Assembly: GCA_964595115.1 (NCBI GenBank)
Contig: CAZQOT010000001.1
Span: forward strand, 1 to 35,218
DNA length: 35,218 nt
DNA from: an uncultured Muribaculaceae bacterium
Lineage (GTDB): Bacteria > Bacillota_I > Bacilli_A > RF39 > UBA660
Direction: 5' to 3'
Positions 319 to 32,132 of this stretch are shown piece after piece; position 1 is the stretch's first letter, and each line of letters opens with the position of its first letter. The position numbers and the translations under genes are program-made. The notes under the pieces were generated by a model. That model saw nothing but the letters and a program-made list of their open reading frames with translations, had not been told where the DNA came from and ran no database searches.

Positions 319-338
319 AAAGCCTATAAATAGGCTTT
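319..338 (-). terminator. Rho-independent terminator after spoIIM
   Basis: Minus strand reads AAAGCCTA-TTTA-TAGGCTTT followed by TTAATTTATT. It overlaps the spoIIM stop codon. Confidence 0.5.
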
Positions 339-966
339 ATTTTATTAATAATGTAAATAATTTCATAATGTATGGTGATACAAACGCTTCTATTAATGAT
401 GATATTACCATAACTATAATGCTAAATATCATAATAAAACTATATCGATTAATTACCTCATTAAAATTAATAGTTTTTTTCTTTACTACAGCCTCTAAAA
501 GATTAAATGAAAATCTAAGAGCATAATAACTAATCATTAGAATTACTATTAATGATATTATATAATGAGGAAAAATATATGTTAATCCCCCTACTACTCC
601 TATTAATTTATATTTTGCTATTATAGCTGCTATACTAAAACCAATCATAAAACCCCTTAAGAATAACATAATAATAATTACTGGAATACCAATAATAGAT
701 ATTCCTAATATCCATATAGCAGTTATATATAATAAATTTGATGTAATACTATTTTTTAGGGCATTATTAAAATCAATATTGTTACTCTTTATTTTATTAA
801 AGAAACTACTTATTTGATTGATTACAGTATTTTTATCAGTTTCATTTATTATTGTTATAAATAAAGACCCAAATATTACACCTATGATGAAAATAAGTAA
901 TAAAAAAAGATATAATCTTTTGGTTTTAATAGTAGATAATTGTAGTTTAGATAATAGCTTGTTCAC
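337..966 (-). CDS. spoIIM: Stage II sporulation protein M (SpoIIM)-like polytopic membrane protein
   Basis: About 210 aa with multiple TM segments and a SpoIIM-like layout. The ORF-track start (TTG at 984) has no SD. The GTG at 966 is preceded by AGAGGTGA, so it is preferred. Confidence 0.7.
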   Translation of the reverse strand: MNKLLSKLQLSTIKTKRLYLFLLLIFIIGVIFGSLFITIINETDKNTVINQISSFFNKIKSNNIDFNNALKNSITSNLLYITAIWILGISIIGIPVIIIMLFLRGFMIGFSIAAIIAKYKLIGVVGGLTYIFPHYIISLIVILMISYYALRFSFNLLEAVVKKKTINFNEVINRYSFIMIFSIIVMVISSLIEAFVSPYIMKLFTLLIK

Positions 967-1034
967 ATTTTCACCTCTAATCAATTATATTTTCGAGATT
1001 TGAAAATATGAATCTTTCTTAAAATTTATAATTA

Positions 1035-1043
1035 TGATATAAT
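1035..1043 (+). promoter_or_regulatory. Extended -10 promoter element (TGATATAAT) for the small ORF at 1072
   Basis: TGNTATAAT match about 30 nt upstream of the SD/TTG start. The -35 is poor. Confidence 0.35.
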
Positions 1044-1071
1044 ACTTTTAGTTATAAAGGAGGCGACCATT

Positions 1072-1170
1072 TTGAATAAAAAAGTTGTTAAAGTAATAAC
1101 TTGGCTAGCTGCTATTGGTATGATTGGTGGTACTATTGCTACCATTGTGGCTCCTCTCTTTGGATTATAA
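1072..1170 (+). CDS. Unannotated 32-codon small membrane peptide (DUF4044-like pattern)
   Basis: AAGGAGG lies 7 nt before TTG. The product LNKKVVKVITWLAAIGMIGGTIATIVAPLFGL has a basic N-terminus plus one TM helix and ends at TAA. It is too short for the ORF track. Confidence 0.5.
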   Translation: MNKKVVKVITWLAAIGMIGGTIATIVAPLFGL

Positions 1171-1181
1171 AAAATAATACA

Positions 1182-1697
1182 CTAGGTATTATTTTTCTTT
1201 TTAAAATCAAATCTAATTATTGCAATTAAAGCAGATATTATTATGATAACATTACCAATGACACTAACATATGCTCCAATAACAAAATTAAACAAGATAT
1301 AGGTGTAGGATTTTATTAATGATACAAGTCTTATTAATGAAACATTATCTTGCCATATAGCATAGATGAATATAATTGACATAACGATTGGAATAGAACT
1401 GTTTAAATCCTTAATGGTAAATATTCCTGTTATCCCCATTAATAAAATAAATATTATTAACATATAAGGAGGTGTTTTTTTAGTGTTTTTATTGTTATAA
1501 TAAAACATTATTGAACTAGCTAAGGCTGCTATATCCATGAATGCTGCACTCCAAGCTCCTAATAAAAAATATTGAATAGCAAAAAAGATATATGCAATTA
1601 CATGAAATTGTAATATTCTTTTTTTATCATTTTGTTGAAGACTTATTATATAGCATATTAATCCTAAAAAACTAAATATTTGAGCTGTTACTTCCAT
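1182..1697 (-). CDS. Polytopic inner-membrane protein, YgjV-like
   Basis: 171 aa with 5-6 hydrophobic helices. The resemblance to the YgjV membrane family is from memory only. Confidence 0.45.
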   Translation of the reverse strand: MEVTAQIFSFLGLICYIISLQQNDKKRILQFHVIAYIFFAIQYFLLGAWSAAFMDIAALASSIMFYYNNKNTKKTPPYMLIIFILLMGITGIFTIKDLNSSIPIVMSIIFIYAIWQDNVSLIRLVSLIKSYTYILFNFVIGAYVSVIGNVIIIISALIAIIRFDFKKKNNT

Positions 1698-1726
1698 ATT
1701 ACCACCAAATTCATTATAACATAAAA

Positions 1727-1746
1727 GATGGGATTTTCATCCCATC
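1727..1746 (-). terminator. Terminator after spoIVB
   Basis: Minus strand reads GATGGGA-TGAAAA-TCCCATC followed by TTTTATGTT. Confidence 0.5.
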
Positions 1747-1751
1747 CTTCC

Positions 1752-2747
1752 CTAGTTTTCAGTTTCTTCTAACATATGGGTAATAAATATTCCATACCCT
1801 TTGGTTGGGTCATCGACTATTACGTGGGTCACAGCTCCAATAATCATTTCATCTTGAATGATGGGGCTACCACTCATCCCTTGCACAACACCACCAGTAG
1901 CTTCTAATAATTTAGCATCAGTAATGTTAAATAAGATGTTTTTGATTTTTTGACGCTCATCATTTATTTTAATAATGTTAATATCAAATTGCTCAACTGT
2001 CTCATCTTTAATAACGGTTAGAATTGATGCTTTTCCTAGCTTTATTTCACTTGGTAAAGCTACTTTATATAGTTTTTTGTTTGAAAAATTAGTATTGAAT
2101 GAACCAAATATTCCGGTATCGGTGTTTTCTGCAATCTTTCCGTAAATGGTATTAGTGTAATACTTAGCACTTTTTTCCCCAGGAGTTCCATTTGTACTTT
2201 TTATGATTCCTTGAACCTCGGATTTAAATATTTTCCCATCTCTTACCTCAATTTTTTGCCCTGTATTTTTTTCCATTATTTCATGTCCTAGTGCTCCAAA
2301 GTTTTTGGTGTTAGGATCAATGAATGTTAAGGTACCAATCCCATTAATAGTATCTTTTACATATAAACCAGTTTTATAAAGGTTTTCTTCATTTTTTACT
2401 AGTTTTAAGTTTGTAATGTTGGTTTTGTTGTAACGCATATATGTAATTAATATACTAGATTTATCTTCATCAGCATTTATTTTATCAACCATTTGATTGA
2501 TGTTGTCAACTTTTTCATTATTGATAGCGATGATTTTATCACCTAGTTTAAGACCAGCGTCACGTCCTGGATATGTATCGTTAATTTTGTATAAACCAAC
2601 TACGATAATACCTTTAGAATTGATTTGTATGCCAATGTTTTCTCCACCAGCAATGATGTAGTCTGAATAGGCAAAAGCACTTGTGGGTAAAATAAGAAGT
2701 GTTAGAATGAAACTACACAGGATGTTTCTCGCTTTTTTTAAAAACAT
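1752..2747 (-). CDS. spoIVB: SpoIVB peptidase (S55 serine peptidase with PDZ domain)
   Basis: N-terminal signal/anchor, a PDZ-like GLKLGDKIIAINNEKV segment, and GTLTFIDP...GALGH...GMSGSPI catalytic motifs. Confidence 0.85.
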   Translation of the reverse strand: MFLKKARNILCSFILTLLILPTSAFAYSDYIIAGGENIGIQINSKGIIVVGLYKINDTYPGRDAGLKLGDKIIAINNEKVDNINQMVDKINADEDKSSILITYMRYNKTNITNLKLVKNEENLYKTGLYVKDTINGIGTLTFIDPNTKNFGALGHEIMEKNTGQKIEVRDGKIFKSEVQGIIKSTNGTPGEKSAKYYTNTIYGKIAENTDTGIFGSFNTNFSNKKLYKVALPSEIKLGKASILTVIKDETVEQFDINIIKINDERQKIKNILFNITDAKLLEATGGVVQGMSGSPIIQDEMIIGAVTHVIVDDPTKGYGIFITHMLEETEN

Positions 2748-4063: not shown

Positions 4064-5335
4064 TTAATTCTCCTTTATATTAATAACATTGGCATTTATA
4101 ATACCCTTGCTAAACATTATATCAATATTATCATTAAGTTTCAAATTATTTATTTTTTCAATAGCTTTATTATCTTTTTTGACAATAGTATATCCTCTTT
4201 TTAGAGTGTTTAATGGATTTAAAACATCTAATTTTTCAATAAATTTTTCTAGTTTGTTTTTAGGTTTATCTAATAATTTAGATGGATTATTTAGAACATA
4301 ACTTTGTTTAATATGATTAAGTCTATTATTGTTCTTATCAATTATATTTAAAATAATTGAATTAAATTTATCTAAGTAACTATCTAGCATTTGCTCTTTA
4401 ACTTCATACATACGCAATGGATTGGTTAAGACATAGCTATCCTTTAATTTTTTTAAAATTATTTTATAATTATCAATTTTATTTGATAATACTTTACTAG
4501 CCCTTATTTTCATGTTATCAATGTAATTTAGAACATCAATCATATTAGGGACCGCTATTTCAGCGGCTCCTGTAGGTGTTGCTGCTCTAACATCGGCTAC
4601 AAAATCACTGATTGTAAAGTCTATTTCATGGCCGACGGCACTGATAGTTGGAATCTTACACTCAAATATTGCTCTGGCAACATCTTCTTCATTAAAGGGC
4701 CATAAATCTTCAATTGAACCACCACCCCGCCCAATTATTAATACATCAATCTCAAATTCCTGAGCTTTCTTGATTTGTTTTACGATATTTGCATGTGCAT
4801 CAGCGCCTTGGACTAATGATGGGAATATAATTGTTTCTACTAGTGGAAATCTTCTTTTCAAAGTTGATAATATATCTTTGATAGCAGCACCGGTAGGAGC
4901 TGTAACTATTCCTATTCTTCTTGGTATTTTTGGTATAGGTTTCTTATGCTTAGGATCAAATAATCCTTCACTGTCTAATTTAGCTTTCAATTGCTCAAAA
5001 GCAATATATAAATTACCAATACCATCTTCCTGCATCTCATCGATATATATTTGATAATTACCAGTTGGTTCATAAATACTTATTTTACCTTTGACTAATA
5101 CTTTCATTCCATCTTCAGGAGTAAACAATAGTTTAGAGGCATTTGAGATAAACATAATAGCCCCTATTCTACTGTTTTCATCTTTTAAAGTAAAATATAA
5201 GTGCCCTCTTGTATGAGGCTTAAAATTAGATATTTCGCCTTTTAAATAGACAGTTTGTAAATGCTCATCATTTTCAAACTTATATTTTAAATAACGAGAG
5301 ATGGCAGTAATAGACAAATACTTATCATCATTCAT
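4064..5335 (-). CDS. xseA: Exodeoxyribonuclease VII large subunit
   Basis: 423 aa with an OB-fold N-terminus (VYLKGEISNFKPHTRGHLYFTLKD) and a catalytic GRGGGSIEDLWPFNEE motif. Confidence 0.9.
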   Translation of the reverse strand: MNDDKYLSITAISRYLKYKFENDEHLQTVYLKGEISNFKPHTRGHLYFTLKDENSRIGAIMFISNASKLLFTPEDGMKVLVKGKISIYEPTGNYQIYIDEMQEDGIGNLYIAFEQLKAKLDSEGLFDPKHKKPIPKIPRRIGIVTAPTGAAIKDILSTLKRRFPLVETIIFPSLVQGADAHANIVKQIKKAQEFEIDVLIIGRGGGSIEDLWPFNEEDVARAIFECKIPTISAVGHEIDFTISDFVADVRAATPTGAAEIAVPNMIDVLNYIDNMKIRASKVLSNKIDNYKIILKKLKDSYVLTNPLRMYEVKEQMLDSYLDKFNSIILNIIDKNNNRLNHIKQSYVLNNPSKLLDKPKNKLEKFIEKLDVLNPLNTLKRGYTIVKKDNKAIEKINNLKLNDNIDIMFSKGIINANVINIKEN

Positions 5336-9210: not shown

Positions 9211-10530
9211 CTATAAATAATTTTGTTTTAATGCTGTTACATATTGATCAATCATATCATGCAAATCATCAGGACTCATGAATATTACTACACTATCATG
9301 ATGATTCATTAATTTTGATGCATCATCTCGTTTAATACTTTCCCCATTATTTAATAAATCTATTATTAAATTATTTGTTACACCTGGATAATTGCTTTCT
9401 TTTTCTCTACTTGGATATACATCTAAAATATATGATTTATCTATAGTATTTAAAACATTAGCTATTTCTTTATGTAAAGCTTTGGTACGTGAATAAGTAT
9501 GGGGTAAAAAGACTCCTATTATTTTTTTATCAGGATATTTTTGTTTAGCTGCTTCAATTACTGCTTTTATCTCGGTTGGATGATGAGCGTAATCATCAAT
9601 AATAATCATATCTTTTACAAATATTTCACTAAACCTTCTTTTAGCTCCTTCATAAGTTGTTAGATAATAAGCTACTTTATCTATATTTAAACCTTCTAAA
9701 TAGGCAGTAGCAATGACAGCTAAAGAATTTAAAATCATATGTTTACCAAAAAGATTAATTTTAAAGTTATTAATTAATTTATCTTTGAAAAATACATCAA
9801 AGGTGAATCCCTTGGTAGTAGATACAACATTAGTAACTTTAAAATCATTATTATCATTAAAGCCATATAAATATACTTCTTTATTCATTTTACTTTTGAT
9901 TTCTTTGATATTTTCATCATCGCCGTAAGCAATTATTTGCTTATTTGTTTGGTTGGCAAATGATATATAAGCATCTTTTATATCCTCTAAATCTTTATAA
10001 TAATCAACATGATCAAGTTCAATATTTGTAATGATGGTCGTATTAGGATAATAATTTAAAAAATGCCTACGATATTCACAAGCCTCAATAATAAAATTGT
10101 TGTTATCTTTGTTTGCATAACCTGTGCCATCACCAATTAAATAATTAGTGCCTATAATATTATTAAATACATGGGACATAATTGATGTGGTTGTCGTTTT
10201 ACCATGACATCCACAAACAGCTATAGTGTCATATTTTTTCGATAATTCACCTAATAATTCATAATATCCATATTTTTTTATACCTAATTTATTTGCTTTG
10301 ATAAGTGCTGGATTATCTTCTTTTATAGAAGCTCCAACAATAGCTATCATGTCATTTGTTATATTAGCATTTTCGTAAGGCATTATTTCAATTCCTCTTT
10401 TATCTAAAGCAATTTGTGTAAAGAAATAATCCTCTTTATCTGAACCGTTAACATTACAACCCAAATCAAACATAATTTGAGCTAATGAACTCATACCAGA
10501 TCCTTTTATACCAATAAAATGATATGTCAT
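9211..10530 (-). CDS. murC: UDP-N-acetylmuramate--L-alanine ligase
   Basis: 439 aa with YHFIGIKGSGMSSLAQIM and GCHGKTTTTSIM Mur-ligase motifs. Confidence 0.9.
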   Translation of the reverse strand: MTYHFIGIKGSGMSSLAQIMFDLGCNVNGSDKEDYFFTQIALDKRGIEIMPYENANITNDMIAIVGASIKEDNPALIKANKLGIKKYGYYELLGELSKKYDTIAVCGCHGKTTTTSIMSHVFNNIIGTNYLIGDGTGYANKDNNNFIIEACEYRRHFLNYYPNTTIITNIELDHVDYYKDLEDIKDAYISFANQTNKQIIAYGDDENIKEIKSKMNKEVYLYGFNDNNDFKVTNVVSTTKGFTFDVFFKDKLINNFKINLFGKHMILNSLAVIATAYLEGLNIDKVAYYLTTYEGAKRRFSEIFVKDMIIIDDYAHHPTEIKAVIEAAKQKYPDKKIIGVFLPHTYSRTKALHKEIANVLNTIDKSYILDVYPSREKESNYPGVTNNLIIDLLNNGESIKRDDASKLMNHHDSVVIFMSPDDLHDMIDQYVTALKQNYL

Positions 10531-11165: not shown

Positions 11166-13265
11166 TTATATCAAAATTTCTATATTATCATTATTAAAAT
11201 CAACTGTGATGTTATCGCCATAGTTTATTTTTTCTTCAATTAGTTGCTTAGCTATTTCGGTTTCTATATGTCTTGAAATAAACCTTTTAAATGGTCTAAC
11301 TCCATAGTTAATATCGTAAGCACTATCAATGATATGTTCAATGGCTTTATTTGTAATATTTATAGTTAAGTTGTACTCATTTAATCTTGTTTCTAGTTCT
11401 CCTATGATTTTTCTTATAATTTTACTAATGATATCCTTAGACAATGAATTAAAGATAATTATTTCATCTATTCGATTTAAGAATTCTGGTCTGAATGTTT
11501 TTTTCATCAAATCAAGGACTAGGTCTTGACCTTTATTTTCTAAAATATATTCACTACCTATATTAGATGTCATAATAATTATAGTGTTCTTAAAATCAAC
11601 TACTCTACCATGACTATCTGTTATTCTACCATCATCAAGAATTTGAAGCAAAATGTTAAATACATCATGATGAGCTTTTTCAATTTCATCAAATAAGACA
11701 ATACTGTAAGGATTACGCCTAACAGCCTCTGTTAATTGACCACCTTCATCGTAACCGATATATCCTGGGGGAGAACCAATTAAACGAGAAACATTAAATG
11801 CTTCCATATATTCACTCATATCTATTCTAATCATATGGCGTTCATCATCAAACAGTTGATATGCTAAGGTTCTAGCAACTTCTGTTTTGCCTACTCCCGT
11901 AGGACCAAGGAAGATGAATGAACCAATTGGACGATTAGGATCTTTTATACCTGCTCTAGCTCTAATAATAGCCTCACTGACAAGTTTTAGAGCATCGTCT
12001 TGACCAATGACACGTTTACTCATTTCCACTTCAAGATTGAGGAGTTTTTCTTTTTCACCCATAGCAAGTTTTGTAACAGGAATGTTAGTCCATTTTGAAA
12101 TGATGCTTGCTATTGATTCTTCAGTAACAGTATCACTAAGCATTTTATTTTCATCTTTTGCTTTTAATTCTTTTAATTCTTTTTCAAGAGTTGGAATTTC
12201 ACCATGACGAATACGGGCAGAAGTCTCTAAATCATATTTGTTTTCAGCTTGTTCTAATCTAAATTTTGCATTCTCAAGTTCACTTTTTTTCTTATTAATT
12301 TTTTCGTTAATATTTTTTTCTTCTTCCCAAGCTTTACGCAACTCACTTTCTTTAGCTTTCAAAGTTATTAATTCATCATTTATAGTATCTAATCTTTTTT
12401 TGCTAGTGTCATCTTTCTCTTTCTTTAAAGCATGGCTCTCTACCTCAAGTTGCATTATATTTCGTGTTAAAGTATCTAATTCAACAGGTACTGAATCCAT
12501 TTGAACTTTGATAGTAGCACAAGCTTCATCGACTAAATCAATAGCTTTATCAGGTAAAAATCTATCTGTAATATAACGATTAGATAAATTAGCGGCAGCA
12601 ATAAGAGCTTTATCTGAAATGTTAACACCATGATGAACCTCATATCTTTCTTTTAATCCACGAAGAATTGTAATGGTGTCTGTTACAGTTGGTTCACTAA
12701 CCATAACCTTTTGAAATCTACGTTCTAAGGCACCATCTAATTCAATGTATTTACGATACTCATTTAAGGTGGTTGCTCCTATACAATGAATTTCACCTCT
12801 AGCAAGCATTGGCTTTAACATGTTAGAAACATCCATAGCACCTTCTAATCTACCAGCACCTACTATCATGTGAATTTCATCAATAAACATAATAATGTTG
12901 CCATCACTGTTTTTTATTTCTTTTAAAACAGCTTTAAGTCTTTCTTCAAATTCCCCTCGATATTTAGCACCTGCTATTAAGGCACCCATATCTAATTCCC
13001 AAATAGTCTTATCTTTTAAACTGTTTGGTACATCACCAGCCACTATTCGTCTAGCTAAACCTTCGACAATAGCGGTTTTACCAACACCTGGTTCACCTAT
13101 TAAAACAGGATTATTTTTTGTTTTACGAGATAAAATACGAGTAATGCTACGAACTTCCTCATCACGACCAATAACAGGATCTATTTTACCGTCTTTAACA
13201 TCTTTAACGATATCACGACCATACTTTTCTAAAACATTTTCTAAATTTTCTTGATAATCATTCAT
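11166..13265 (-). CDS. clpB: ClpB-type AAA+ disaggregase lacking the N-terminal domain (699 aa)
   Basis: Two Walker A sites ([16 protein letters not shown]), a long coiled-coil middle domain, and [11 protein letters not shown]. The ATG at 13265 follows GAGGTGA. The ORF-track extension to 13403 runs through the promoter and the neighbouring gene. Confidence 0.9.
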
Positions 13266-13350: not shown

Positions 13351-13866
13351 TTATTCCAACCATATCTTTGTAATAACTGTGTCGTGAGCCATTCTATATC
13401 CACCTAACCAAAAATTAAAATGAATATAGTATTCTCCTTGATATGTACTAATATCTAAACTTCCTTCATATTGGGATTCATCATCGGGAAAATAAAAATT
13501 AGAAACAAACTGGTCGGTATCATCCATTTTATTATCATTTATACTTATATGTGATGCCCATGCGTTATCAGTAGTAGTTGTGTATTGCACTTTTAATGTA
13601 TTATATCCAGTTGTATCGACTTTGTTTTTGGTTGTTATTACAATACCATTACCAGCAGGTGTCATGTTTTCTTCAATATGTATGGCTATGTTATTTGCAT
13701 TAAAAGTTATTGTAGTACCAGGTTGAAGATAGGTATCTCCAATTTCCCAATCATCAGTTCCAATGCCTTCATTATACAGGTAATAATTTAATCCCAGATC
13801 GCAACTATCTTCACTTACCTCAATATTATGATATGAACCACATGCACTCCTATAATATATTGTTTT
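13351..13866 (-). CDS. Hypothetical beta-rich protein with an N-terminal CGSYHN...C module. The frame is open for 171 codons, but the first in-frame ATG is at 13665.
   Basis: The frame stays open from the TAG at 13869..13867 to the TAA at 13353..13351. The N-terminal 16 aa match the region upstream of the glycine-rich gene. No in-frame ATG/GTG/TTG exists upstream of 13665, and 13665 has no SD. Confidence 0.45.
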
Positions 13867-13904
13867 CTATATTTTAGAATAACATAGATATACGCTTTTT
13901 GCAA
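13839..13904 (-). repeat. Copy B of the 66-bp promoter/leader repeat (TTGCAA-N17-TATTCT with TG-extended -10, SD GGAGTG, ATG)
   Basis: 57/66 identical, by hand alignment, to 21023..21088. The -35 is at 13904..13899 and the -10 at 13881..13876. Confidence 0.65.
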
Positions 13905-13948
13905 CCAAAGAATATAAAGGACGTGTAAAAAAATGATAATTTAAAATT

Positions 13949-14488: not shown

Positions 14489-15099
14489 TTTTTCACCTTA
14501 CTGCTTCCTTTATCAATATTTCCTTCCTTCCAGCACTGATAACATAAACCAGTGTATGATTCATCCCCTCCAATTTGTACTTCATCTCCTTCATATACAA
14601 TTATATATTTTTTACTTACTTCGTCAAACATATATCTAGCATTCACAATTTTGTTTCTCCCACATTTACATTTTGATTCAAGTGCTATTATAACATCTGC
14701 TAATTCGAAGGCTCTCATACTGCCAGGAAATAATGTTGTTTTAAAATTACCTCTTAAACCATATAACTTAACATTAATATTTAACGTATCTACAATATCT
14801 TTGAATTGTTCAATTTGCAATGGAGTCAAAAACTGAGCTTCATCGACAATAATATAAGTTGTATAAAGCAAATTATAACTGAATTTTTTAATAATGTCAT
14901 CACTAGGATTAATTAATAAGGCGTCAGCTTCAATGCCATTAATTCTAGACTTAATAATTTCCGTACCATCTCTAGTATCAATTGATGGTTTCATCAATAA
15001 AGTTGGATGTTTTTGATCTTTTAAATCATAATACTCGATTAATGCCTTCGTTGTTTTCCCGCTGCCCATTGTCCCATAAATATAAAAAAGTTCCGCCAT
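14485..15099 (-). CDS. tdk: Thymidine kinase
   Basis: GTMGSGKT P-loop, VDEAQF motif, and a C-terminal zinc ribbon CKCG...CYQCW. Confidence 0.9.
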   Translation of the reverse strand: MAELFYIYGTMGSGKTTKALIEYYDLKDQKHPTLLMKPSIDTRDGTEIIKSRINGIEADALLINPSDDIIKKFSYNLLYTTYIIVDEAQFLTPLQIEQFKDIVDTLNINVKLYGLRGNFKTTLFPGSMRAFELADVIIALESKCKCGRNKIVNARYMFDEVSKKYIIVYEGDEVQIGGDESYTGLCYQCWKEGNIDKGSSKVKK

Positions 15100-16436: not shown

Positions 16437-19064
16437 TTATTTATTTTCATTTAATTTTGCTTGAGCAGCTGCTAATCTTGCAATTGGAACTCTGAATGGA
16501 GAGCATGATACATAATTCAAGCCTGCTTTGTGACAGAATTCTATTGAACTGGGTTCCCCACCATGTTCACCGCAGATTCCTAATTTAATATCAGTTCTAG
16601 TGCTTTTACCTTTTTCAACAGCTATTTTTACTAATTCACCAACACCTACTTGATCTAACTTAGCAAAAGGATCTGATTCAAAGATATTTTTGTCATAATA
16701 ATCGTTTAAGAATTTTGAAGCATCATCTCTTGAGAATCCAAATGTCATTTGCGTTAAATCGTTAGTTCCAAATGAGAAAAATTCTGCTTCTTTGGCTATT
16801 TCATCAGCTGTAATAGCCGCTCTTGGGATTTCTAGCATTGTACCAACAAGATATTTTAAATTTACCCCCGAATCTCTAATAATAGAGTCTGCTGTTTCAA
16901 CCACTATATTCTTAATATATTTAAACTCTTTTACTTCTCCTACTAATGGAATCATTATTTCAGGTATTACAGTCATACCTTCTTTATTGACATTAATAGC
17001 AGCTTCAATAACAGCTCTTGTTTGCATTTTAGCAATTTCAGGATATGTTATAGATAATCTACATCCACGATGTCCCATCATTGGATTAAATTCATGCAGT
17101 GAAGTGATTCTTGCCTTTAGGGACTCGAATGTCATACCAAGTTCTTTAGCAAGTGATGTAATTTCAACATCAGTATGAGGTAAGAATTCATGTAGAGGTG
17201 GATCTAAATAACGTATTGTTACTGGAAATCCTTTCATAGCTCTAAATAATCCTTCAAAATCAGTTCTTTGCATTGGTAATAATTTCGCTAAGGCAATTTC
17301 TCTTTGTTCTAATGTCTCAGCTGTTATCATTTGTCTCATTGCAAAGATTCTATCTGCAGCAAAGAACATGTGTTCAGTTCTACATAAACCAATACCTTCT
17401 GCTCCAAACTTCATAGCCTGTTCTGCATCTCTTGGCGTATCAGCATTAGTTCTAACTTTTAATGTTCTAACTTCATCTGCCCAAGCCATAAAGGTTTTGA
17501 AATCACCACTAATTTCTGGTTCAACCGTTTTAATTTGTTCACCATAAACGTTACCGGTAGAACCATCTAAACTCATATAGTCTCCTTCATGAAAATCTTT
17601 ACCATCTTTGGTTGTTAAAGTTTTTGTTTCTTCATTTATTTTTAACTCACCACAACCGCATACACAGCATTTACCCATACCTCTTGCTACAACAGCAGCA
17701 TGAGAGGTCATTCCACCACGGACAGTTAGAATACCTTGGGCTACATTCATCCCCTCTATATCTTCAGGACTTGTTTCAAGTCTTACTAACAGTACTAGTT
17801 TTTCCCCATTTTCATGAGCTTTAACTGCATCTTCGGCGGTAAAATATATTTTACCAGTAGCAGCTCCTGGTGAAGCAGCTAAACCAGTTGCAATAACTTT
17901 GGTAGCCTTTTGTGATTCTACATCAAAGTTAGGATGCAACAATTGATCTAATTGTTTTGGTTCAACTTTTAACAAGGCTTCTTCTTTAGTAAGCATGCCT
18001 TCACTCACTAAATCAACAGCTACTTTTAAAGCTGCAGGTGCAGTTCTTTTACCATTTCTTGTTTGGAGCATGAATAATTTGCCACTTTCGATTGTAAATT
18101 CCATGTCTTGCATGTCTTTATAATGATTTTCTAATAGATTAGCTATTCTAACAAATTCATTATAAACCTCAGGCATATCACTTTCTAGTTTTGATATAGG
18201 CTCAGGTGTTCTAATACCAGCAACAACATCTTCACCTTGAGCATTAATTAAATATTCACCATATAATTTTTTTTCACCGGTCGATGGATTCCTTGTGAAA
18301 GCAACACCTGTCCCACAATCGTTTCCACGATTCCCATAAACCATTTCTTGCACGTTTACAGCTGTTCCCCAATCAGACGGAATATCATTTAATCTACGAT
18401 ATACGATAGCTCTATCATTCATCCACGATCTAAATACAGCTTTTATCGCTTCCATTAATTGTACTTTTGGATCTTGTGGAAAATCTTCACCAGATAATTC
18501 TTTATAGTTTGCTTTAAATTTTTCAGTAATTTCTTTCATGTCATCAGCTGTTAATTCTAGGTCGTTTGTGACCCCTTTTTCTTCTTTTATTTTATCAAAA
18601 TATCTTTCAAAAGAAGATTTTGGATATCCTTTAACAACATCTGAAAACATTTGAATAAATCTACGATATGAATCATATGCAAATCTAGGGTTATTAGTGG
18701 CTTCTGCAAATCCCTTTGCCACTTCATCATTTAACCCAAGGTTTAATACTGTATCCATCATTCCAGGCATAGATGCTCTAGCACCACTTCTAACAGATAC
18801 TAATAGCGGATTAGAATAATCACCCATTTTCTTTCCTGTTTTATTTTCTAGCATTTCTAATGATTTGAAGATTTCATCTTCAATTTCTTTAGGCAAAGCT
18901 TCACTGTTTTCATAATATTTAGTACAAGCTTCAGTTGTAACTGTAAAACCCCTCGGTACTGGTAAACCAATATTAGTCATTTCTGCTAAATTAGCACCTT
19001 TTCCTCCAAGTAGATTCTTCATTTCTTTTTTACCTTCTTCAAAGGCATACACATATTTTGTCAT
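16437..19064 (-). CDS. ppdK: Pyruvate, phosphate dikinase
   Basis: 875 aa with an ATP-grasp N-terminus, the phosphohistidine motif GGMTSHAAVVARG, and a PEP-utilising C-terminal TIM barrel (GICGE). Confidence 0.95.
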   Translation of the reverse strand: MTKYVYAFEEGKKEMKNLLGGKGANLAEMTNIGLPVPRGFTVTTEACTKYYENSEALPKEIEDEIFKSLEMLENKTGKKMGDYSNPLLVSVRSGARASMPGMMDTVLNLGLNDEVAKGFAEATNNPRFAYDSYRRFIQMFSDVVKGYPKSSFERYFDKIKEEKGVTNDLELTADDMKEITEKFKANYKELSGEDFPQDPKVQLMEAIKAVFRSWMNDRAIVYRRLNDIPSDWGTAVNVQEMVYGNRGNDCGTGVAFTRNPSTGEKKLYGEYLINAQGEDVVAGIRTPEPISKLESDMPEVYNEFVRIANLLENHYKDMQDMEFTIESGKLFMLQTRNGKRTAPAALKVAVDLVSEGMLTKEEALLKVEPKQLDQLLHPNFDVESQKATKVIATGLAASPGAATGKIYFTAEDAVKAHENGEKLVLLVRLETSPEDIEGMNVAQGILTVRGGMTSHAAVVARGMGKCCVCGCGELKINEETKTLTTKDGKDFHEGDYMSLDGSTGNVYGEQIKTVEPEISGDFKTFMAWADEVRTLKVRTNADTPRDAEQAMKFGAEGIGLCRTEHMFFAADRIFAMRQMITAETLEQREIALAKLLPMQRTDFEGLFRAMKGFPVTIRYLDPPLHEFLPHTDVEITSLAKELGMTFESLKARITSLHEFNPMMGHRGCRLSITYPEIAKMQTRAVIEAAINVNKEGMTVIPEIMIPLVGEVKEFKYIKNIVVETADSIIRDSGVNLKYLVGTMLEIPRAAITADEIAKEAEFFSFGTNDLTQMTFGFSRDDASKFLNDYYDKNIFESDPFAKLDQVGVGELVKIAVEKGKSTRTDIKLGICGEHGGEPSSIEFCHKAGLNYVSCSPFRVPIARLAAAQAKLNENK

Positions 19065-19091
19065 TATATCATCCTTTCATACACAATTAAT

Positions 19092-19120
19092 AGTATAGCA
19101 AAATTGTTGTATTTTCTCAA
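19092..19120 (-). promoter_or_regulatory. SigA-type promoter of ppdK (TTGAGA-N17-TATACT)
   Basis: Minus strand has TTGAGA at 19120..19115, a 17-nt spacer, and TATACT at 19097..19092. Confidence 0.55.
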
Positions 19121-19266
19121 TAATTTTGCCTTAACATGCTAAATGTTTACATAAATATTATATTAAATAATTAAATAAAAATCCAAATATAATTTTGGGT
19201 TTTTATTTTAAAACTAAGTTATCTACATATGTGTCTAAAATCAATATTTTTAATAATATCATTAAT

Positions 19267-20700
19267 TTATTGTGCACCGATAAATGTAATTATAGCGTAA
19301 CCATCACCTGATCTACCGTTCATATTTCCACCATTAGGATTTGGCATTGATGTGTTACCATCAATCGTTTGGCCATCAGTTACGCCCCCAATATAACCAG
19401 AACCACCTGCACCTGAACCATATGTAACAACATAATATAGTTGTGAATTGCCAATACATTGGAATCTAGATCCACCGCCACCTCCATAGTAACCACCGCC
19501 GCCAACACCACCCCCTTGAGTAGATTTGTCACCGCCAACACCTAAGGTTCCGGCTGATCCAGCCCATTGTTCAAAAGTATAAGTACAAGTACGTGGAGTA
19601 GACGCAATAGCGCGTTGACCTCCAGCTGTTTGAGTGCCACCTTTGTTTGGTATATTGGTTGTTATTACGCTTGTATGATAAGTCCCAGAATAAATTAATC
19701 CATCTACGCCATCACTGCCACCACCAGCGCCACCCTTTATACATTGTGTAGAGTTGCTAGTATCGTATCTTAGTTCATTATGCCCTGCCGATCCACCGCC
19801 GCCAGCAACAATAATTCTATTGCTCAAATCAGTTCCCCCCATACGAATATCAGTAGCCCCACCCCCACCATAGCCTGATGAACAAGCAGAAGTAGTGCCG
19901 CCTCCGCCATTATAACACATACCACCAACATAGATATAAATTGTTTCGTTAGCATTAATGGTTACATTACCAGTAGAATAACTACCCTTACCAGCATATG
20001 ATATGTCGCATTTCCAATCACTTCCACCTTGTGCTCCCCAAACTTCCAATTTATAAGTACCTGTTACTGGTGCTATAAATGTTTGTTGAGAACCAGTGAA
20101 AGAATATTCACTAGGAGGGAATGTTACATTCACTGTTCTAGTGGCTGTTGCAACGTTACCAGCTTCATCAGTTGCTGTATAAGTAATCGTATATGTTCCA
20201 ACAGCATTTATGTTGACATCTCCTTTAGTCGACACACTTAAATTACCACTAATATCATCTGTTGCAGTAGCACCCTGATCAGTGTATGTAGATCCTAGTT
20301 CAATTGTAATTGTACTATCGCCAGTTATCGTTATTTCTGGAGCTAAAGTGTCTAATAAAAAGCTCTTTGAAAATCTAGCTACATTATCATTCAAATCACT
20401 AGCTATTGCATGGAGATAATAAGTTCCTGAGGTTATTGGAGCTTCTGTTAAGGGGTTTCCACTAACATAACTATGTATATATTCTTCGTCTGTTGGTACA
20501 TCTTCACTATTTGTCCAAACATATTTGAGACTAGAAGTATCAATAGTTTTATCAATAACTGAAATAGTTATTTTACTAACTGTCATATATGTTGATGAAC
20601 CATTTGGCGTGTATATAATAATTGGCGGTCCAAAATCTAGTTCACAATCACCTTCATATACATTAACATTATGATAACTTCCACATGAGGTAAAACCTCC
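19267..20700 (-). CDS. Surface-type protein with a Cys-loop module, two Ig-like domains (the second DUF5011-like) and a C-terminal glycine-rich domain (PF12810-like). The frame is open back to the pilin TGA; the first ATG is at 20586.
   Basis: ITITGDSTITIELGSTYTDQGATATDDISGNL...GTYTITYTATDEAGNVATATRTVNV is Ig-like. YSFTGSQQTFIAPVTGTYKLEVWGAQGGS plus repeated GGGG tracts marks the glycine-rich family. There is no signal peptide and no SD before the 20586 ATG. Confidence 0.7.
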   Translation of the reverse strand, partial: GGFTSCGSYHNVNVYEGDCELDFGPPIIIYTPNGSSTYMTVSKITISVIDKTIDTSSLKYVWTNSEDVPTDEEYIHSYVSGNPLTEAPITSGTYYLHAIASDLNDNVARFSKSFLLDTLAPEITITGDSTITIELGSTYTDQGATATDDISGNLSVSTKGDVNINAVGTYTITYTATDEAGNVATATRTVNVTFPPSEYSFTGSQQTFIAPVTGTYKLEVWGAQGGSDWKCDISYAGKGSYSTGNVTINANETIYIYVGGMCYNGGGGTTSACSSGYGGGGATDIRMGGTDLSNRIIVAGGGGSAGHNELRYDTSNSTQCIKGGAGGGSDGVDGLIYSGTYHTSVITTNIPNKGGTQTAGGQRAIASTPRTCTYTFEQWAGSAGTLGVGGDKSTQGGGVGGGGYYGGGGGSRFQCIGNSQLYYVVTYGSGAGGSGYIGGVTDGQTIDGNTSMPNPNGGNMNGRSGDGYAIITFIGAQ

Positions 20701-21021
20701 TCATTTATCTTTGCCAGTTATTATAATAAATAGTTTATCATTATGTTTAGTAAAGACAATACTTTCATAATTAGCACCGTTCAAATTTAAGGCTGTTAAT
20801 AGACCTTTCAAATCACTATTATAATCCATTGGATTAAAATCACCTATCTCTAATTTTTTTAAATCAATAGATTTCAACACTAATTTTGTATCACTTTTCA
20901 TTGAGCTCATCGTGCTTTTTTTAATAATACCTGATATTCCTGGTACGGCTATTGCTAAGATAATAGCAAGCACAACTATTACTGCCAATAATTCTACTAG
21001 CGTAAATCCTTTTTTATTCAT
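20701..21021 (-). CDS. Prepilin-type N-terminal cleavage/methylation domain protein (type IV pilin / pseudopilin-like), 106 aa
   Basis: MNKKG|FTLVELLAVIVVLAIILAIAVPG is a class III signal with Glu at +5. SD GAGGAG precedes it. The gene ends in TGA. Confidence 0.85.
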   Translation of the reverse strand: MNKKGFTLVELLAVIVVLAIILAIAVPGISGIIKKSTMSSMKSDTKLVLKSIDLKKLEIGDFNPMDYNSDLKGLLTALNLNGANYESIVFTKHNDKLFIIITGKDK

Positions 21022-21022
21022 T

Positions 21023-21088
21023 CACATGCACTCCTCTATTATATTGTTATCCATATAATAGAATATCATACATATACACTTTTTGCAA
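21023..21088 (-). repeat. Copy A of the 66-bp promoter/leader repeat (TTGCAA-N17-TATTCT, TG-extended) driving the pilin gene
   Basis: The -35 is at 21088..21083 and the -10 at 21065..21060, followed by SD GAGGAGTG and then ATG-TGA-ATG. It matches 13839..13904. Confidence 0.65.
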
Positions 21089-21140
21089 ACATAAGCATTG
21101 AAAAAATCGCGTAAAATAGATTGATATTACCAAAACAAAA

Positions 21141-21190
21141 GGAAGACCTTCTAAAATATATTTATCAAACAATATTTTAAAAGGTCTTCC
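21141..21190 (-). terminator. 10-bp perfect inverted repeat with a 30-nt loop, possibly the xerC terminator
   Basis: GGAAGACCTT...AAGGTCTTCC. On the minus strand it is followed by TTTTGTTTTGG. The loop is unusually large and the element lies about 190 nt past the xerC stop. Confidence 0.35.
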
Positions 21191-21380
21191 ATATAAATAT
21201 TAAATCAAATAATAATTATCAATCGAATATTTTATTAAACTAATTTTGATTATGATTACTTTGACACATATTTATCTCAAATGTAGTTTGATTACAACAT
21301 TACAACGAAGGTATTTATATGTATTTTTTATGTTCTTTTGGACACTTGTTTTTTCTATCCATAAATAATTAATACTTATA

Positions 21381-22274
21381 TTATTTTTTATGAGCCCTTG
21401 GATGTGCTTTTAAATATATACTTCTTAATCTTTCATTAGTAACATGGGTATATATACTAGTTGTACTCAGACTCTCGTGACCTAATAATTCTTGAACAAC
21501 TAGCAAATCAGCTCCAGATTCAAGCATATGAGTTGCAAAAGTATGTCTTATCGTATGGGGGGAAATATGCTTTTTTAATGATGTTTCTTTTATTAGATTA
21601 TTAATTATATATCTAATAGCTCTTTCCGTTATTTGATTCCCACGGTTATTTAATATTAAGTGGTCACACTTTTTATTATTTAATAGTTTTAAATATCCAT
21701 CTTTTAAATATATATTCATTATATCTTTACAACAATCTCCAAATATGACATTACGCATTTTATTTCCCTTACCAGTAACAGAAATTATTCTATTATGTAA
21801 ATCAATATCATTCATCTTAATTTGTATTAATTCACCTACTCTTATTCCAGTAGCATACAATAATTCAAGAATTAATCTATTTCTTTGCCCTAATGGATTA
21901 TCCATGTTAGGAACAACTAATAGATCTTCTAATTCATTATAGTAAAGAAATGATGGTAATTTTTTTTCTTTCTTTGGAAGAGATACAAGTAAAAATGGAT
22001 TATCATCAATTATATCTTCTACCGTTAAATATTTGTAAAAACTACGAAGTGAACTAATCTTTCTTGAAATGGTAGATCTTTTATATTTAAATTCGTGTAG
22101 TTTCATTAGATATGGTTTAATACCTTGATATGTCAATTTATTATATACAATCTGATTATCACTTAAATAACTAATAAATTCTTTTATGTCTTCTTTGTAA
22201 TTAATAATTGTATTTTCAGAATAACCGCGTTCAAATCTTAAATATTTAATAAATTTTTCAAGATAATTATTCAT
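21381..22274 (-). CDS. xerC: Tyrosine recombinase XerC/XerD family
   Basis: Core-binding N-terminal domain and a catalytic HTIRHTFATHML...LLGHESLSTTSIYTHV (R-H-R-Y). Its position downstream of topA matches the Firmicute topA...codV(xerC) synteny. The start is ATG 22274 or TTG 22286. Confidence 0.8.
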   Translation of the reverse strand: MNNYLEKFIKYLRFERGYSENTIINYKEDIKEFISYLSDNQIVYNKLTYQGIKPYLMKLHEFKYKRSTISRKISSLRSFYKYLTVEDIIDDNPFLLVSLPKKEKKLPSFLYYNELEDLLVVPNMDNPLGQRNRLILELLYATGIRVGELIQIKMNDIDLHNRIISVTGKGNKMRNVIFGDCCKDIMNIYLKDGYLKLLNNKKCDHLILNNRGNQITERAIRYIINNLIKETSLKKHISPHTIRHTFATHMLESGADLLVVQELLGHESLSTTSIYTHVTNERLRSIYLKAHPRAHKK

Positions 22275-31018: not shown

Positions 31019-32119
31019 TTATCTTGCTTTTCCACTTAATTCATTTTGTCTAAAATCACCAAATAATTCAAGTTTAATATTTAGTTCGTTTATTATTATT
31101 TGTAATTTTCTAAGAATTAAATCACGATATTGTTCACCTAAAAATGATGCATAGTTTGCTATTAAAAATGATCTGTATTTTATTGCTTCATCTAAAACTG
31201 CTTTTGTTCCTTCTTCATCATCAGTCGCTAATAAGTAATTAAATTTATCATATAAAGATTTTAACTTTTTATCAATTTTCATTTTAATAACTTTATCGAT
31301 AAATGATGGTTTAATTAAAATCATTTTATTGACACTAATTACATCATTTCTTTTAGCGTCATTCTTTGGTGTGATATCTAATCCTTTTAATTTATTAAAT
31401 TCAAAAAAGACAATTTCATGTTTGTTAATATTTTTATCTAATAAGAAACCATTACATTTTTTAAATAAATCAGGCCTTTTTTCTAATGTCTTTATAATTC
31501 TCTCTGTTTGTCTCCACTTTTCAATTTTCTTATGATGGCCACTAAGTAATATCTCTGGTACTTCCATTCCTTCGTAATTTTGAGGTTTAGTATAAGTTGG
31601 ATAATCTAATAACCCATCTGCAAATGAATCTTTTTGATGCGATTCATCATCAATAACACCATCTATTAATCTAATGACACTATCCATAACCACCATACTA
31701 GGTAGTTCGCCACCTGTAAGAACATAATCACCAATACTTATTTCTAAATCAGCTAATGACCTGATACGTTCGTCAAATCCCTCATAATGACCACATATGA
31801 AAATTAAATGCTCACTATCTTTTAGAGTGTATGCTAATTTTTGATCATGCATGACACCTTGAGGAGTCATTAATATTACTTTTGATTTTTTAGTACGTAA
31901 ATCTTTAACAGCATCAAAAATTGGTTGACACATTAATACCATACCAGCACCACCACCGTATGGAGTATCATCTACTTTCTTATGTTTATCAGTAGAATAG
32001 TCTCTAATGTTATGAATATTAACCTCAGTTTTCTTATTATCAATAGCCCTTTTTATGATTGATTCATTTAAGAATCCATCAAACATCTTTGGAAATAATG
32101 TTAAGACATCTATTTTCAT
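31019..32119 (-). CDS. trmD: tRNA (guanine37-N1)-methyltransferase TrmD with a ~140-aa C-terminal extension of unknown function
   Basis: IDVLTLFPKMF, DDTPYGGGAGMVL and GHYEGFDERI motifs identify the SPOUT knot core, which ends near EKRPDLFKK. The ORF then continues for about 140 more residues. The ATG at 32119 follows GGAGG. Confidence 0.85.
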   Translation of the reverse strand: MKIDVLTLFPKMFDGFLNESIIKRAIDNKKTEVNIHNIRDYSTDKHKKVDDTPYGGGAGMVLMCQPIFDAVKDLRTKKSKVILMTPQGVMHDQKLAYTLKDSEHLIFICGHYEGFDERIRSLADLEISIGDYVLTGGELPSMVVMDSVIRLIDGVIDDESHQKDSFADGLLDYPTYTKPQNYEGMEVPEILLSGHHKKIEKWRQTERIIKTLEKRPDLFKKCNGFLLDKNINKHEIVFFEFNKLKGLDITPKNDAKRNDVISVNKMILIKPSFIDKVIKMKIDKKLKSLYDKFNYLLATDDEEGTKAVLDEAIKYRSFLIANYASFLGEQYRDLILRKLQIIINELNIKLELFGDFRQNELSGKAR

Positions 32120-32132
32120 AATTACCTCCATA

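Follow-up and report, generated by a model that had tools for sequence, protein, structure and literature searches.

Organization of the locus

The window, meaning the whole stretch of 35,218 nucleotides that was analysed, contains two consecutive open reading frames (ORFs) on the minus strand that are separated by a stop codon and a short linker. The elements of this region, in the direction of transcription, are as follows.

21141..21190, minus strand: inverted repeat GGAAGACCTT...AAGGTCTTCC, followed by a T-run at 21140..21131, both read from the sequence
21060..21088, minus strand: putative promoter, with -35 element TTGCAA at 21088..21083, a 17-nt spacer, and TGn plus -10 element TATTCT at 21065..21060
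21031..21036, minus strand: Shine-Dalgarno sequence GAGGAG, 9 nt before the ATG at 21021
20701..21021 (stop included), minus strand: prepilin ORF of 106 aa, starting MNKKG/FTLVE and ending with a TGA stop at 20703..20701
20586..19267, minus strand: downstream ORF of 439 aa, with a TAA stop at 19269..19267

The TGA at 20703..20701 is in frame with the downstream ORF (439 codons, 19267..20586), and the 38 codons that lie between them, GGFTSCGSYHNVNVYEGDCELDFGPPIIIYTPNGSSTY, include no stop and no ATG, GTG, or TTG. One peptide that read-through would produce, with sequence encoded downstream of 20700, is WGGFTSCGSYHNVNVYEGDCELDFGPPIIIYTPNGSSTYMTVSK. Inspection of the 25 nt preceding ATG 20586 (cacgccaaatggttcatcaacatat) revealed no Shine-Dalgarno sequence. 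A preliminary description of this DNA had reported the shared frame, the stop- and start-free linker, and the bare ATG, and all three are confirmed from the sequence. It had also given an in-frame stop a chance expectation of one in three. Such stops are indeed common per se, with one found ahead of the next gene in 2 of the 36 other genes of the window, but chance fails as an account of the whole: at the base composition of the minus strand, 38 stop-free codons have P = 0.025, and 38 codons free of both stops and starts have P = 0.003 before the frame factor of 1/3 is applied. The arrangement of the two ORFs is not explained by chance. Because frame alone is common enough, however, it is homology, not frame, that provides the decisive evidence.

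The interrupted pilin gene stands alone between xerC and ppdK. From its sequence, the inverted repeat at 21141..21190 is likely the terminator of the upstream xerC, which would set the pilin gene apart as a separate transcription unit; the repeat is absent from the consensus scan, and Rfam offers only a chance sub-threshold match there. The segment at 21060..21088 may function as a promoter, as its sequence suggests. The promoter/5'UTR block of about 90 nt is conserved upstream of the gene for the homologue P0021 and is repeated within the window at 13930..13839 (81% over 94 nt, E 1e-17). No pilus assembly gene occurs among the other ORFs of the 35-kb window, as had been noted previously. Relatives likewise keep such pilin genes away from the pilus machinery, so that an "orphan" location is normal for the family.

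Two further features of the neighborhood were considered and set aside. The xerC gene was rejected as a dedicated phase-variation recombinase, as it is a housekeeping, topA-linked XerC/CodV that adjoins ppdK in relatives without the pilin gene. An apparent frameshift in clpB was likewise rejected as a sign of poor assembly, as this gene has its start at ATG 13265, preceded by a Shine-Dalgarno sequence, and merely lacks the N-domain.

A single gene in relatives

A prepilin N terminus, Ig-like sequence, and an ALK/LTK-type glycine-rich domain (PF07963, PF16403, PF12810) are joined in a single chain in dozens of proteins, and the single ORF is therefore the ancestral state. The ORF that is broken in the window by the TGA at codon 107 is uninterrupted in dozens of homologues. 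A conceptual 584-aa fusion of the two ORFs aligns end to end with homologues, and the close homologues of this pilin subfamily are single chains. In the motif "GKxKW.GL.ACGSY," tryptophan occupies the position of the TGA in 27 of 27 motif-matched homologues; nine further subfamily matches missed by the strict pattern also have W in the printed motif when read by eye, and W107 is nearly invariant in the family alignment. At the DNA level, the codon is TGG in all five relatives that were read. Used as a pattern, a six-sequence family alignment retrieved one locus in genomes and two in metagenomes; a 15-sequence alignment proved too diverse to serve as a pattern, and the genome-contig scan with the single fused protein as query yielded no relative.

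These comparisons establish, at the level of sequence, that the two ORFs are the halves of one predicted modular type IV pilin gene. Because both ORFs belong to one gene, the missing start codon, Shine-Dalgarno sequence, and signal peptide of the downstream ORF are accounted for. The preliminary description had proposed such an origin, along with a pilin-anchored, multidomain surface protein of what is now about 584 aa exported by way of a class III signal, and had called for a search of relatives for an uninterrupted ORF or a sense codon at the TGA; the uninterrupted homologues, with tryptophan encoded by TGG, bear out these predictions. Family-conserved columns are retained on both sides of the stop (32 of 34 upstream and 77 of 86 downstream), and the absence of decay in the downstream part indicates that the event was recent.

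Domain architecture

Region 21021..19267 of the minus strand may thus be treated as one modular type IV pilin gene. Its predicted parts would follow in the order class III signal, small pilin module (alpha1, a four-stranded sheet, and the Cys113-Cys126 loop), a pair of Ig-like domains, and finally an ALK/LTK-like glycine-rich domain.

20704..21021, minus strand: pilin module, first 106 codons, with the class III signal MNKKG/FTLVE, helix alpha1, and beta strands 1-2
20701..20703, minus strand: in-frame TGA, codon 107, at the position of the family's Trp (TGG)
20632..20700, minus strand: remainder of the pilin module, codons 108-130, with beta strands 3-4 and the Cys113-Cys126 loop SCGSYHNVNVYEGDC
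20344..20631, minus strand: first Ig-like domain, codons ~131-226 ("...SSLKYVWTNSE..."), by homology to P0007
20125..20334, minus strand: second Ig-like domain, PF16403/DUF5011 type, codons 230-299 (Pfam 76.6 bits versus a cut-off of 27)
19279..20064, minus strand: ALK/LTK-type glycine-rich (TG/GRD) domain, codons 320-581 (PF12810 ALK_LTK_GRD, 90.3 bits versus a cut-off of 24.5)

The class III signal peptide, MNKKG/FTLVELLAVIVVLAIILAIAVPG, has a basic leader ending in Gly, followed by FTLxE and a hydrophobic helix. The prepilin N terminus is recognized by both PF07963 (29.6 bits, cut-off 21.2) and TIGR02532 (29.5, cut-off 16.3), with the Pfam N_methyl match falling at residues 2-25 of the conceptual 584-aa fusion. 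C-terminal to the pilin module, the two Ig-like domains and PF12810 are grafted domains that are not specific to pilus biology.

The first Ig-like domain is colinear with residues 111-236 of P0007 (41% identity, E 3e-28). Met145, encoded by ATG 20586, falls inside it, opposite an internal Val of P0007, and is not a real start because it is internal to this conserved domain. This bears directly on whether the locus could instead comprise two separate genes, a short orphan pilin and an Ig/glycine-rich protein that is either cytoplasmic or initiated unconventionally at Met145 or at a non-canonical codon. Gene callers did return the 439-aa product (P0001), and a GGAGG lies just 3' of the TGA. Against these points, Met145 is internal, the ATG beyond the GGAGG lies in another frame and yields only MWKLS before a stop, the 38 linker codons specify pilin strands that are conserved, together with the Cys loop, and the close subfamily homologues are single-chain, leaving two genes a highly improbable arrangement. 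The unconventional initiation suggested earlier for the downstream ORF is improbable on the same grounds, as its supposed start is inside a conserved domain and its linker encodes pilin strands. Reinitiation from the GGAGG after the TGA was also rejected: ATG 20686 is out of frame, and the occurrence of the same mini-frame in the second locus described below reflects only shared CGSYHN codons.

In a search of the PDB with Foldseek, the top 21 matches to the model of P0021 are ALK/LTK ectodomain structures, 7nx4 among them (E 4e-9), with low TM-scores of 0.24-0.41 that reflect poor modelling of the glycine-rich part. The window's domain resembles the ligand-binding TG (TNF-like/glycine-rich) domain of ALK/LTK in its HMM score, well over the cut-off for PF12810, and in the structural matches of its homologue P0021, and differs in being bacterial and, by prediction, fused to a pilin. 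By eye, the window's glycine-rich copy has six extra cysteines that are absent from the aligned homologues.

A second, headless paralogue

A second member of the family lies on the same contig.

13351..13930, minus strand: headless paralogue, consisting of a copy of the pilin promoter/5'UTR (13930..13839), the Cys loop, and a C-terminal part of about 150 aa

Here, the promoter/5'UTR is joined at GCATGTG directly to the 15-aa Cys loop, with an open frame at 13866..13351, and both the pilin module and a start codon are absent. The C-terminal part of about 150 aa has no detectable homologue. Judged from its sequence, the pilin module was lost by deletion at the GCATGTG microhomology, and the paralogue is clearly dead, a loss that fits decay of this gene family in the genome. 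That two paralogues on one 35-kb contig are independently inactivated hints at rapid turnover of the adhesin repertoire. A silent cassette like Neisseria pilS was rejected for this locus, which keeps its promoter, is present in a single copy, and gives no evidence of exchange.

Nature of the interrupting codon

The most probable explanation of the codon-107 TGA is a recent TGG-to-TGA nonsense allele, either a pseudogene or an allele with low-level read-through by Trp, as opposed to programmed recoding. The change would be a single G-to-A transition in the codon for Trp107, a GC-to-AT change in a genome whose G+C content is about 27%. Of the proposals made in the preliminary description, a nonsense-split gene, listed there as an alternative, is now the best-supported.

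The TGA might also stem from a mistake in base calling or in the consensus, or from a minority allele that the assembler fixed; the real gene would then be an intact modular pilin gene of 584 codons with TGG. The TGA is one base away from the relatives' TGG, the rest of the gene is intact in its conserved columns, and the species is represented once in the protein collection, with no second copy to compare. Against such an error, the 36 other genes of the window show no stop or frameshift damage, so that the assembly looks accurate; true nonsense alleles are, by our own uncomputed estimate, commoner than consensus errors that create stops; and the second, independent lesion in the paralogue at 13351..13930 argues that the family is really decaying. 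An error is therefore unlikely, and the base call is presumably correct.

Whether TGA might be a sense codon in this organism can be judged from the remaining genes. Among the 36 other genes of the window, with 9,819 codons, there are 43 TGG and no in-frame TGA. The TGA stops of tdk and rnhB coincide with the ends of the respective family profiles, and the remaining TGA-terminated genes would gain only 3-14 codons under a sense reading, a gain no larger than chance predicts. Thus, in the window TGA is neither frequent at Trp positions nor absent as a terminator, and genetic codes 4 and 25 were rejected on the basis of the tdk and rnhB stops, these short extensions, and the count of 43 TGG to 0 in-frame TGA. 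The window contains no tRNA gene, and prfB is also outside it. The gene shares with lineages that have reassigned UGA to Trp (translation table 4; Mycoplasmatales, Entomoplasmatales, and other lineages) a TGA at a conserved Trp and a very AT-rich relative of Mollicutes as its source. It differs from them in that tdk and rnhB truly stop at TGA and in that 43 TGG are accompanied by no other in-frame TGA; unlike classical mollicutes, moreover, the source organism has sporulation and murein genes.

Signals for recoding were sought around the TGA itself. Neither Rfam nor SECIS models match there, and a small hairpin, AUGAGG/CCUCAU, folds no better than shuffled sequence (z = 0.06); no cis-acting signal, whether SECIS or stable downstream structure, was found. 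An in-frame TGA with this hairpin around it could point to selenocysteine, a barely credible assignment here given that homologues have Trp at the position, never Cys, that no SECIS family matches, and that the hairpin is unexceptional. Nor is the stop conserved in orthologues, which have TGG at five of five DNA loci and Trp throughout the subfamily. Programmed read-through or recoding of the TGA, as first proposed, is thus not supported: the stop is absent from all relatives, TGA serves as a stop elsewhere in the window, and no recoding signal was found.

A less regimented form of suppression merits separate consideration. UGA is the leakiest stop codon, near-cognate tRNA-Trp is its main suppressor, and a G following the stop lowers the efficiency of termination, as seen in leaky UGA-to-Trp alleles such as catA86-TGA and spoIIR-TGA of Bacillus subtilis and in Escherichia coli reporters (PMC7918605, PMC11126739). 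In B. subtilis, misreading of UGA as Trp amounts to about 6% (PMC7918605), and reporters in E. coli show leakiness where a G and further G-rich sequence come directly after UGA (PMC11126739); in the window the context is TGA GGA GG. By analogy with these alleles the window's stop may be leaky as well, and suppression here would restore the ancestral Trp. In addition, bacteria with a 4-bp-stem tRNA-Trp that still use UGA stops exist (PMC13092985). Functional read-through would mean that ribosomes of this AT-rich lineage, which carries the database labels Bacilli or "Mollicutes," insert Trp at UGA appreciably often, giving a regulated or low-dose full-length pilin-adhesin. The cause could lie in a weak RF2, in a tRNA-Trp(CCA) whose anticodon stem has only 4 bp, or in incipient code-4 reassignment. 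The stop falls exactly on the invariant Trp, the sequence beyond it shows no damage, precedents exist in the leakiness of a +4 G with G-rich context in E. coli and in the UGA-stop bacteria with 4-bp-stem tRNA-Trp, and the closest TopA relatives are metagenome-assembled genomes (MAGs) labelled Bacilli or Mollicutes. Yet about 10,000 codons contain a single such TGA and 43 TGG, tdk and rnhB stop at TGA where expected, no relative has TGA here, and neither Rfam nor folding found a stimulatory structure. The coincidence of the TGA with a Trp codon carries little weight, since TGG to TGA is the only single-base route from Trp to TGA and few codons (TGT/TGC, CGA, AGA, GGA, TTA, TCA) share one-step access. 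We consider functional read-through quite unlikely. A related idea is that UGA continues to terminate translation in this lineage but yields Trp so frequently that TGG to TGA is tolerated in a non-essential surface gene or serves to lower its dose. The lineage would then be a living intermediate on the way to the mycoplasma code, seen in a pilin-adhesin gene for which read-through gives exactly the wild-type protein; this is very unlikely.

Consequences for the protein

What a nonsense allele would remove can be estimated from an AlphaFold model of P0021 (mean pLDDT 80.8, pilin part >90), an intact homologue whose residue numbers match those of the window protein. In this model, alpha1 spans residues 8-58, beta1 85-93, beta2 96-103, beta3 111-114, and beta4 119-122, so that beta3, beta4, and both cysteines are all C-terminal to W107, in the part modelled with pLDDT >90. 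Codons 108-130 of the window gene, which lack a start codon of their own, align with ACGSY...C of the homologues. As modelled, the 106-aa product would be an incomplete fold lacking half of the pilin beta-sheet and the disulfide loop; the encoded ORF ends after beta2, and only conceptual read-through supplies the complete four-stranded pilin head with its C-terminal disulfide loop.

On the nonsense-allele explanation, normal translation would end after Lys106, leaving a pilin stump without strands 3-4 and the disulfide loop. The remaining 477 codons, with no start, Shine-Dalgarno sequence, or signal, would not be translated independently. Termination probably predominates at the codon-107 TGA, and full-length protein would come only from the few ribosomes that misread UGA with tRNA-Trp, restoring the ancestral residue. 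By analogy with the leaky alleles, it is conceivable that the TGA GGA GG context provides a useful amount of full-length, wild-type protein. As a separate observation, 477 intact downstream codons are what would be expected of a functional read-through gene as well.

Relation to known modular pilins

Modular type IV pilins include PilB and PilC of Streptococcus sanguinis and have been catalogued by Raynaud et al. (2021; PMC8179133). A role as adhesins at the tip of the filament has been proposed for such pilins. The IPR012902-PF12810 and IPR012902-IPR032179 (DUF5011 Ig-like) architectures are already in Dataset S1 of that study (PMC8179133). Like them, the window gene begins with a pilin module that bears a class III signal (IPR012902), to which non-pilus domains are grafted through a short linker. 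By analogy, the intact protein would be cleaved by prepilin peptidase and enter a type IV filament, displaying its C-terminal modules as a binding head, and may act as an adhesin. It differs from the known examples in combining two Ig-like modules with an ALK-like glycine-rich module, in being interrupted by TGA inside the pilin module, and in its solitary position, flanked by xerC and ppdK.

In annotation, the 106-aa "pilin" and the 439-aa "hypothetical protein" should be joined into one entry, marked as an interrupted modular pilin gene, in place of two genes or a recoding event. The locus would take on greater importance only if UGA were efficiently read as Trp in this lineage. It adds one more member to a widespread, unstudied class of pilins with Ig-like and ALK/LTK-like glycine-rich domains, whose genes appear as scattered single-gene units with a common promoter.

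Two open reading frames, one gene

The preliminary description had drawn attention to a 106-aa prepilin frame whose TGA stop lies in frame with a 439-aa frame downstream, and re-reading the sequence bears this out.

Features of the interrupted gene, with residues numbered along the conceptual 584-aa fusion
21021..20701, minus strand: frame with a 106-aa product beginning MNKKG followed by FTLVELLAVIVVLAIILAIAVPG
20703..20701, minus strand: TGA stop of that frame
20586, minus strand: ATG in the same frame, which runs on to TAA 19269..19267
Residues 2-25: prepilin N-methylation motif (Pfam and NCBIfam)
Residues 230-299: PF16403 Ig-like domain (Pfam and NCBIfam)
Residues 320-581: PF12810 ALK/LTK glycine-rich domain (Pfam and NCBIfam)

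The 38 codons past the TGA (GGFTSCGSYHNVNVYEGDCELDFGPPIIIYTPNGSSTY) contain no stop and no ATG, GTG, or TTG, and inspection of the sequence upstream of ATG 20586 found no Shine-Dalgarno sequence. From base composition, the chance of 38 stop-free codons is P = 0.025, and that of a stretch free of both stops and starts P = 0.003. As an in-frame stop ahead of the next gene is also found for 2 of the window's 36 other credible genes and is not rare in itself, the meaning of the arrangement rests on homology.

When proteins were searched with the fusion, dozens of matches carried PF07963, PF16403, and PF12810 in a single polypeptide (for example, homologues P0016, 491 aa; P0021, 497 aa; P0025, 481 aa; and P0023, 745 aa), and alignment of the fusion with single-chain homologues spans the first to the last residue. 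Fusion residues 110-234, beginning just past the TGA, are colinear with residues 111-236 of homologue P0007 (41% identity, E 3e-28). Met145 is opposite an internal valine of the conserved Ig-like domain in this alignment (‘PNGSxxY(M/V)...SSLKYVWTNSE’) and was therefore rejected as the start of the 439-aa frame. Comparison with homologues thus shows that the two frames are one gene, as had been proposed; unconventional initiation of a separate downstream gene is very improbable given the internal position of Met145 and the single-chain homologues. Ancestry within the modular type IV pilins (Raynaud et al. 2021, PMC8179133) is clear, whereas the gene as encoded has an incomplete pilin head and an interrupted reading frame. 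Dataset S1 of that study already includes pilin-PF12810 and pilin-DUF5011 architectures.

Among the homologues, the likeness of P0037 to P0049 stops abruptly at residue 618 (TGRGG), with P0049 running 182 residues further; by eye, the P0037 tail (residues 619-691) looks like out-of-frame translation. More speculatively, the four closest pilins (P0016, P0049, P0025, and P0037) may come from the window's own genome.

An invariant tryptophan at the stop position

The pilin subfamily shares the motif G-K-x-K-W-x-G-L/F-x-A-C/Y-G, of which the window counterpart is GKDK-stop-GGFTSCG. The TGA position is tryptophan in all 27 motif-matched subfamily homologues and, by eye, in 9 further matches missed by the strict pattern. 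The codon is TGG in 5 of 5 relatives read at the DNA level: L001 (a ‘Mollicutes bacterium’ MAG), L002, L004 (which carries the P0021 gene), and two genes in L005 (a ‘Bacilli bacterium’ MAG). One G-to-A transition, at the third position of the invariant Trp codon, thus separates the window from its family. This comparison with uninterrupted relatives, which the preliminary description had proposed, favors its own alternative, a nonsense-split gene, over recoding.

The structural cost of stopping here can be gauged from P0021, an intact homologue modelled with AlphaFold (mean pLDDT 80.8, pilin part >90), whose residue numbering is that of the window.

Secondary structure of the P0021 model
8-58: alpha1
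85-93: beta1
96-103: beta2
107: tryptophan (W107)
111-114: beta3
119-122: beta4

Since beta3, beta4, and both loop cysteines (113 and 126 in the window) follow W107, a product ending at Lys106 is predicted to have an incomplete pilin head, without half of the sheet and without the disulfide loop. The best PDB matches of the model's C-terminal domain are crystal and cryo-EM structures of the ALK/LTK TG domain (E down to 4e-9). The window's own glycine-rich domain (19279..20064, minus strand) has six cysteines (WKCD, MCYN, SACS, TQCI, RTCT, and FQCI), most of them missing, by eye, in aligned homologues; they may form extra disulfides, which would fit an extracellular protein.

Lesion or recoded stop

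The preliminary description had favored read-through or recoding of the TGA, a proposal that the TGG of the relatives undercuts and that the window does not otherwise sustain. The 36 other genes (9,819 codons) hold 43 TGG codons and no in-frame TGA. TGA terminates four of them, tdk and rnhB ending where their family profiles end, and reading it as sense would extend these four by only 3-14 codons, so that a table 4 code finds no support in the window. No SECIS or other Rfam element was found within 19000-21400, which makes selenocysteine at the TGA barely credible. A structured read-through signal is likewise unsupported, the 6-bp hairpin AUGAGG/CCUCAU around the UGA being no more stable than shuffled sequence (z = 0.06). 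GGAGG (20700..20696) directly follows the TGA, and the ATG 9 nt further is out of frame and gives only MWKLS and a stop (20681..20703, minus strand); an analogous mini-frame, MWFIS and a stop, occurs in a second paralogue (13827..13850, minus strand), both arising because the shared S/A-C-G-S-Y-H-N codons are read in another frame.

With 37 homologues aligned and columns counted as conserved from 75% upward, the window protein keeps 32 of 34 such columns upstream of the TGA and 77 of 86 downstream; the downstream part is undamaged. Such preservation is as compatible with a sequencing error or a tolerated read-through allele as with a recent nonsense mutation. The most likely reading, and a probable one, is a genuine TGG-to-TGA nonsense allele. 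A base-call or consensus error is unlikely; the species occurs once in the protein collection and so offers no second copy for checking the base. Efficient lineage-level UGA-to-Trp decoding, or regulated read-through, is more doubtful still in view of the 43 TGG codons, the lack of in-frame TGA, and the lack of a structured signal in the window; it is retained as an option because UGA-reading tRNA-Trp variants are described in bacteria that nevertheless use UGA stops (PMC13092985), and because no tRNA gene was found in the window and tRNA-Trp and prfB lie outside it. With a nonsense allele, termination would release a non-functional pilin stump, and full-length protein, identical to wild type, would arise only through rare misreading of UGA by tRNA-Trp. 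Such misreading occurs at about 6% in B. subtilis (PMC7918605) and is favored by a G following the stop in E. coli (PMC11126739). The stop codon is, on this evidence, an ordinary lesion in a damaged modular pilin gene.

Genomic setting and a second, headless paralogue

The window is a housekeeping stretch (~27% G+C) of an uncultured, spore-forming Firmicute, with genes that include spoIIM, spoIVB, xseA, nusB, murC, clpB, tdk, uppS, ppdK, xerC, topA, rnhB, ylqF, lepB, rplS, trmD, and rimM. The window's TopA shares 82-85% identity with proteins from MAGs that carry the label Bacilli or Mollicutes bacterium; the latter label is misleading, as spoIIM, spoIVB, and murC (337..2747 and 9211..10530, minus strand) mark a walled spore-former. 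ppdK directly follows xerC in L006, L007, and L008, the closest relatives for which DNA was available.

The interval between xerC and ppdK
19065..21380: window
14943..15027: L006
16743..16832: L008

Because this spacer is only 85-90 bp in the relatives, the window pilin gene is a lineage-specific insertion of ~2.3 kb, with a promoter-like region of its own downstream of a hairpin that is the likely xerC terminator. Pilin genes of this kind also stand singly amid unrelated housekeeping genes in relatives, so being an ‘orphan’ is the normal state in the family.

The ~90-nt promoter/5'UTR block
21023..21116, minus strand: window, pilin gene
13839..13930, minus strand: window, second paralogue
About 4445..4534: L004, from another sample, upstream of the P0021 gene

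The block (pattern TTGCAAA.AG...TATG.TAT..T...GATAACAATATAATAGAGGAGTG.ATGTG) is 81% identical over 94 nt between the two window copies (E 1e-17) and is missing at the pilin genes of L001, L002, L003, and L005; it possibly represents a regulatory region particular to this family. At the second paralogue (13351..13930, minus strand), it passes via ‘...aggagtGCATGTG’ directly into ‘Gttcatatcataat...’, which encodes the post-Trp Cys loop and then ~150 residues for which no relatives were detected. There is no start codon, and the pilin module is missing its first ~112 codons. The junction is GCATGTG, 7-8 nt of microhomology that the 5'UTR shares with the A-C-G codons, and the annotated 104-aa frame 13351..13665 is the tail of this headless copy. 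The locus is a dead remnant, broken independently of the first gene, and shows this genome to be losing modular pilin genes.

The neighboring ClpB homologue (11166..13265, minus strand) matches its profile from position 146 of 853. A GTG at 13403 was listed mechanically as its start; ATG 13265, behind GAGGTG, was taken instead, and a frameshift was rejected, the gene simply lacking the N-terminal domain. The TrmD frame (31019..32131, minus strand) is 370 aa long, with the TrmD profile covering residues 5-226 only; a similar 366-aa gene in relative L006 suggests a conserved C-terminal extension of ~140 aa.
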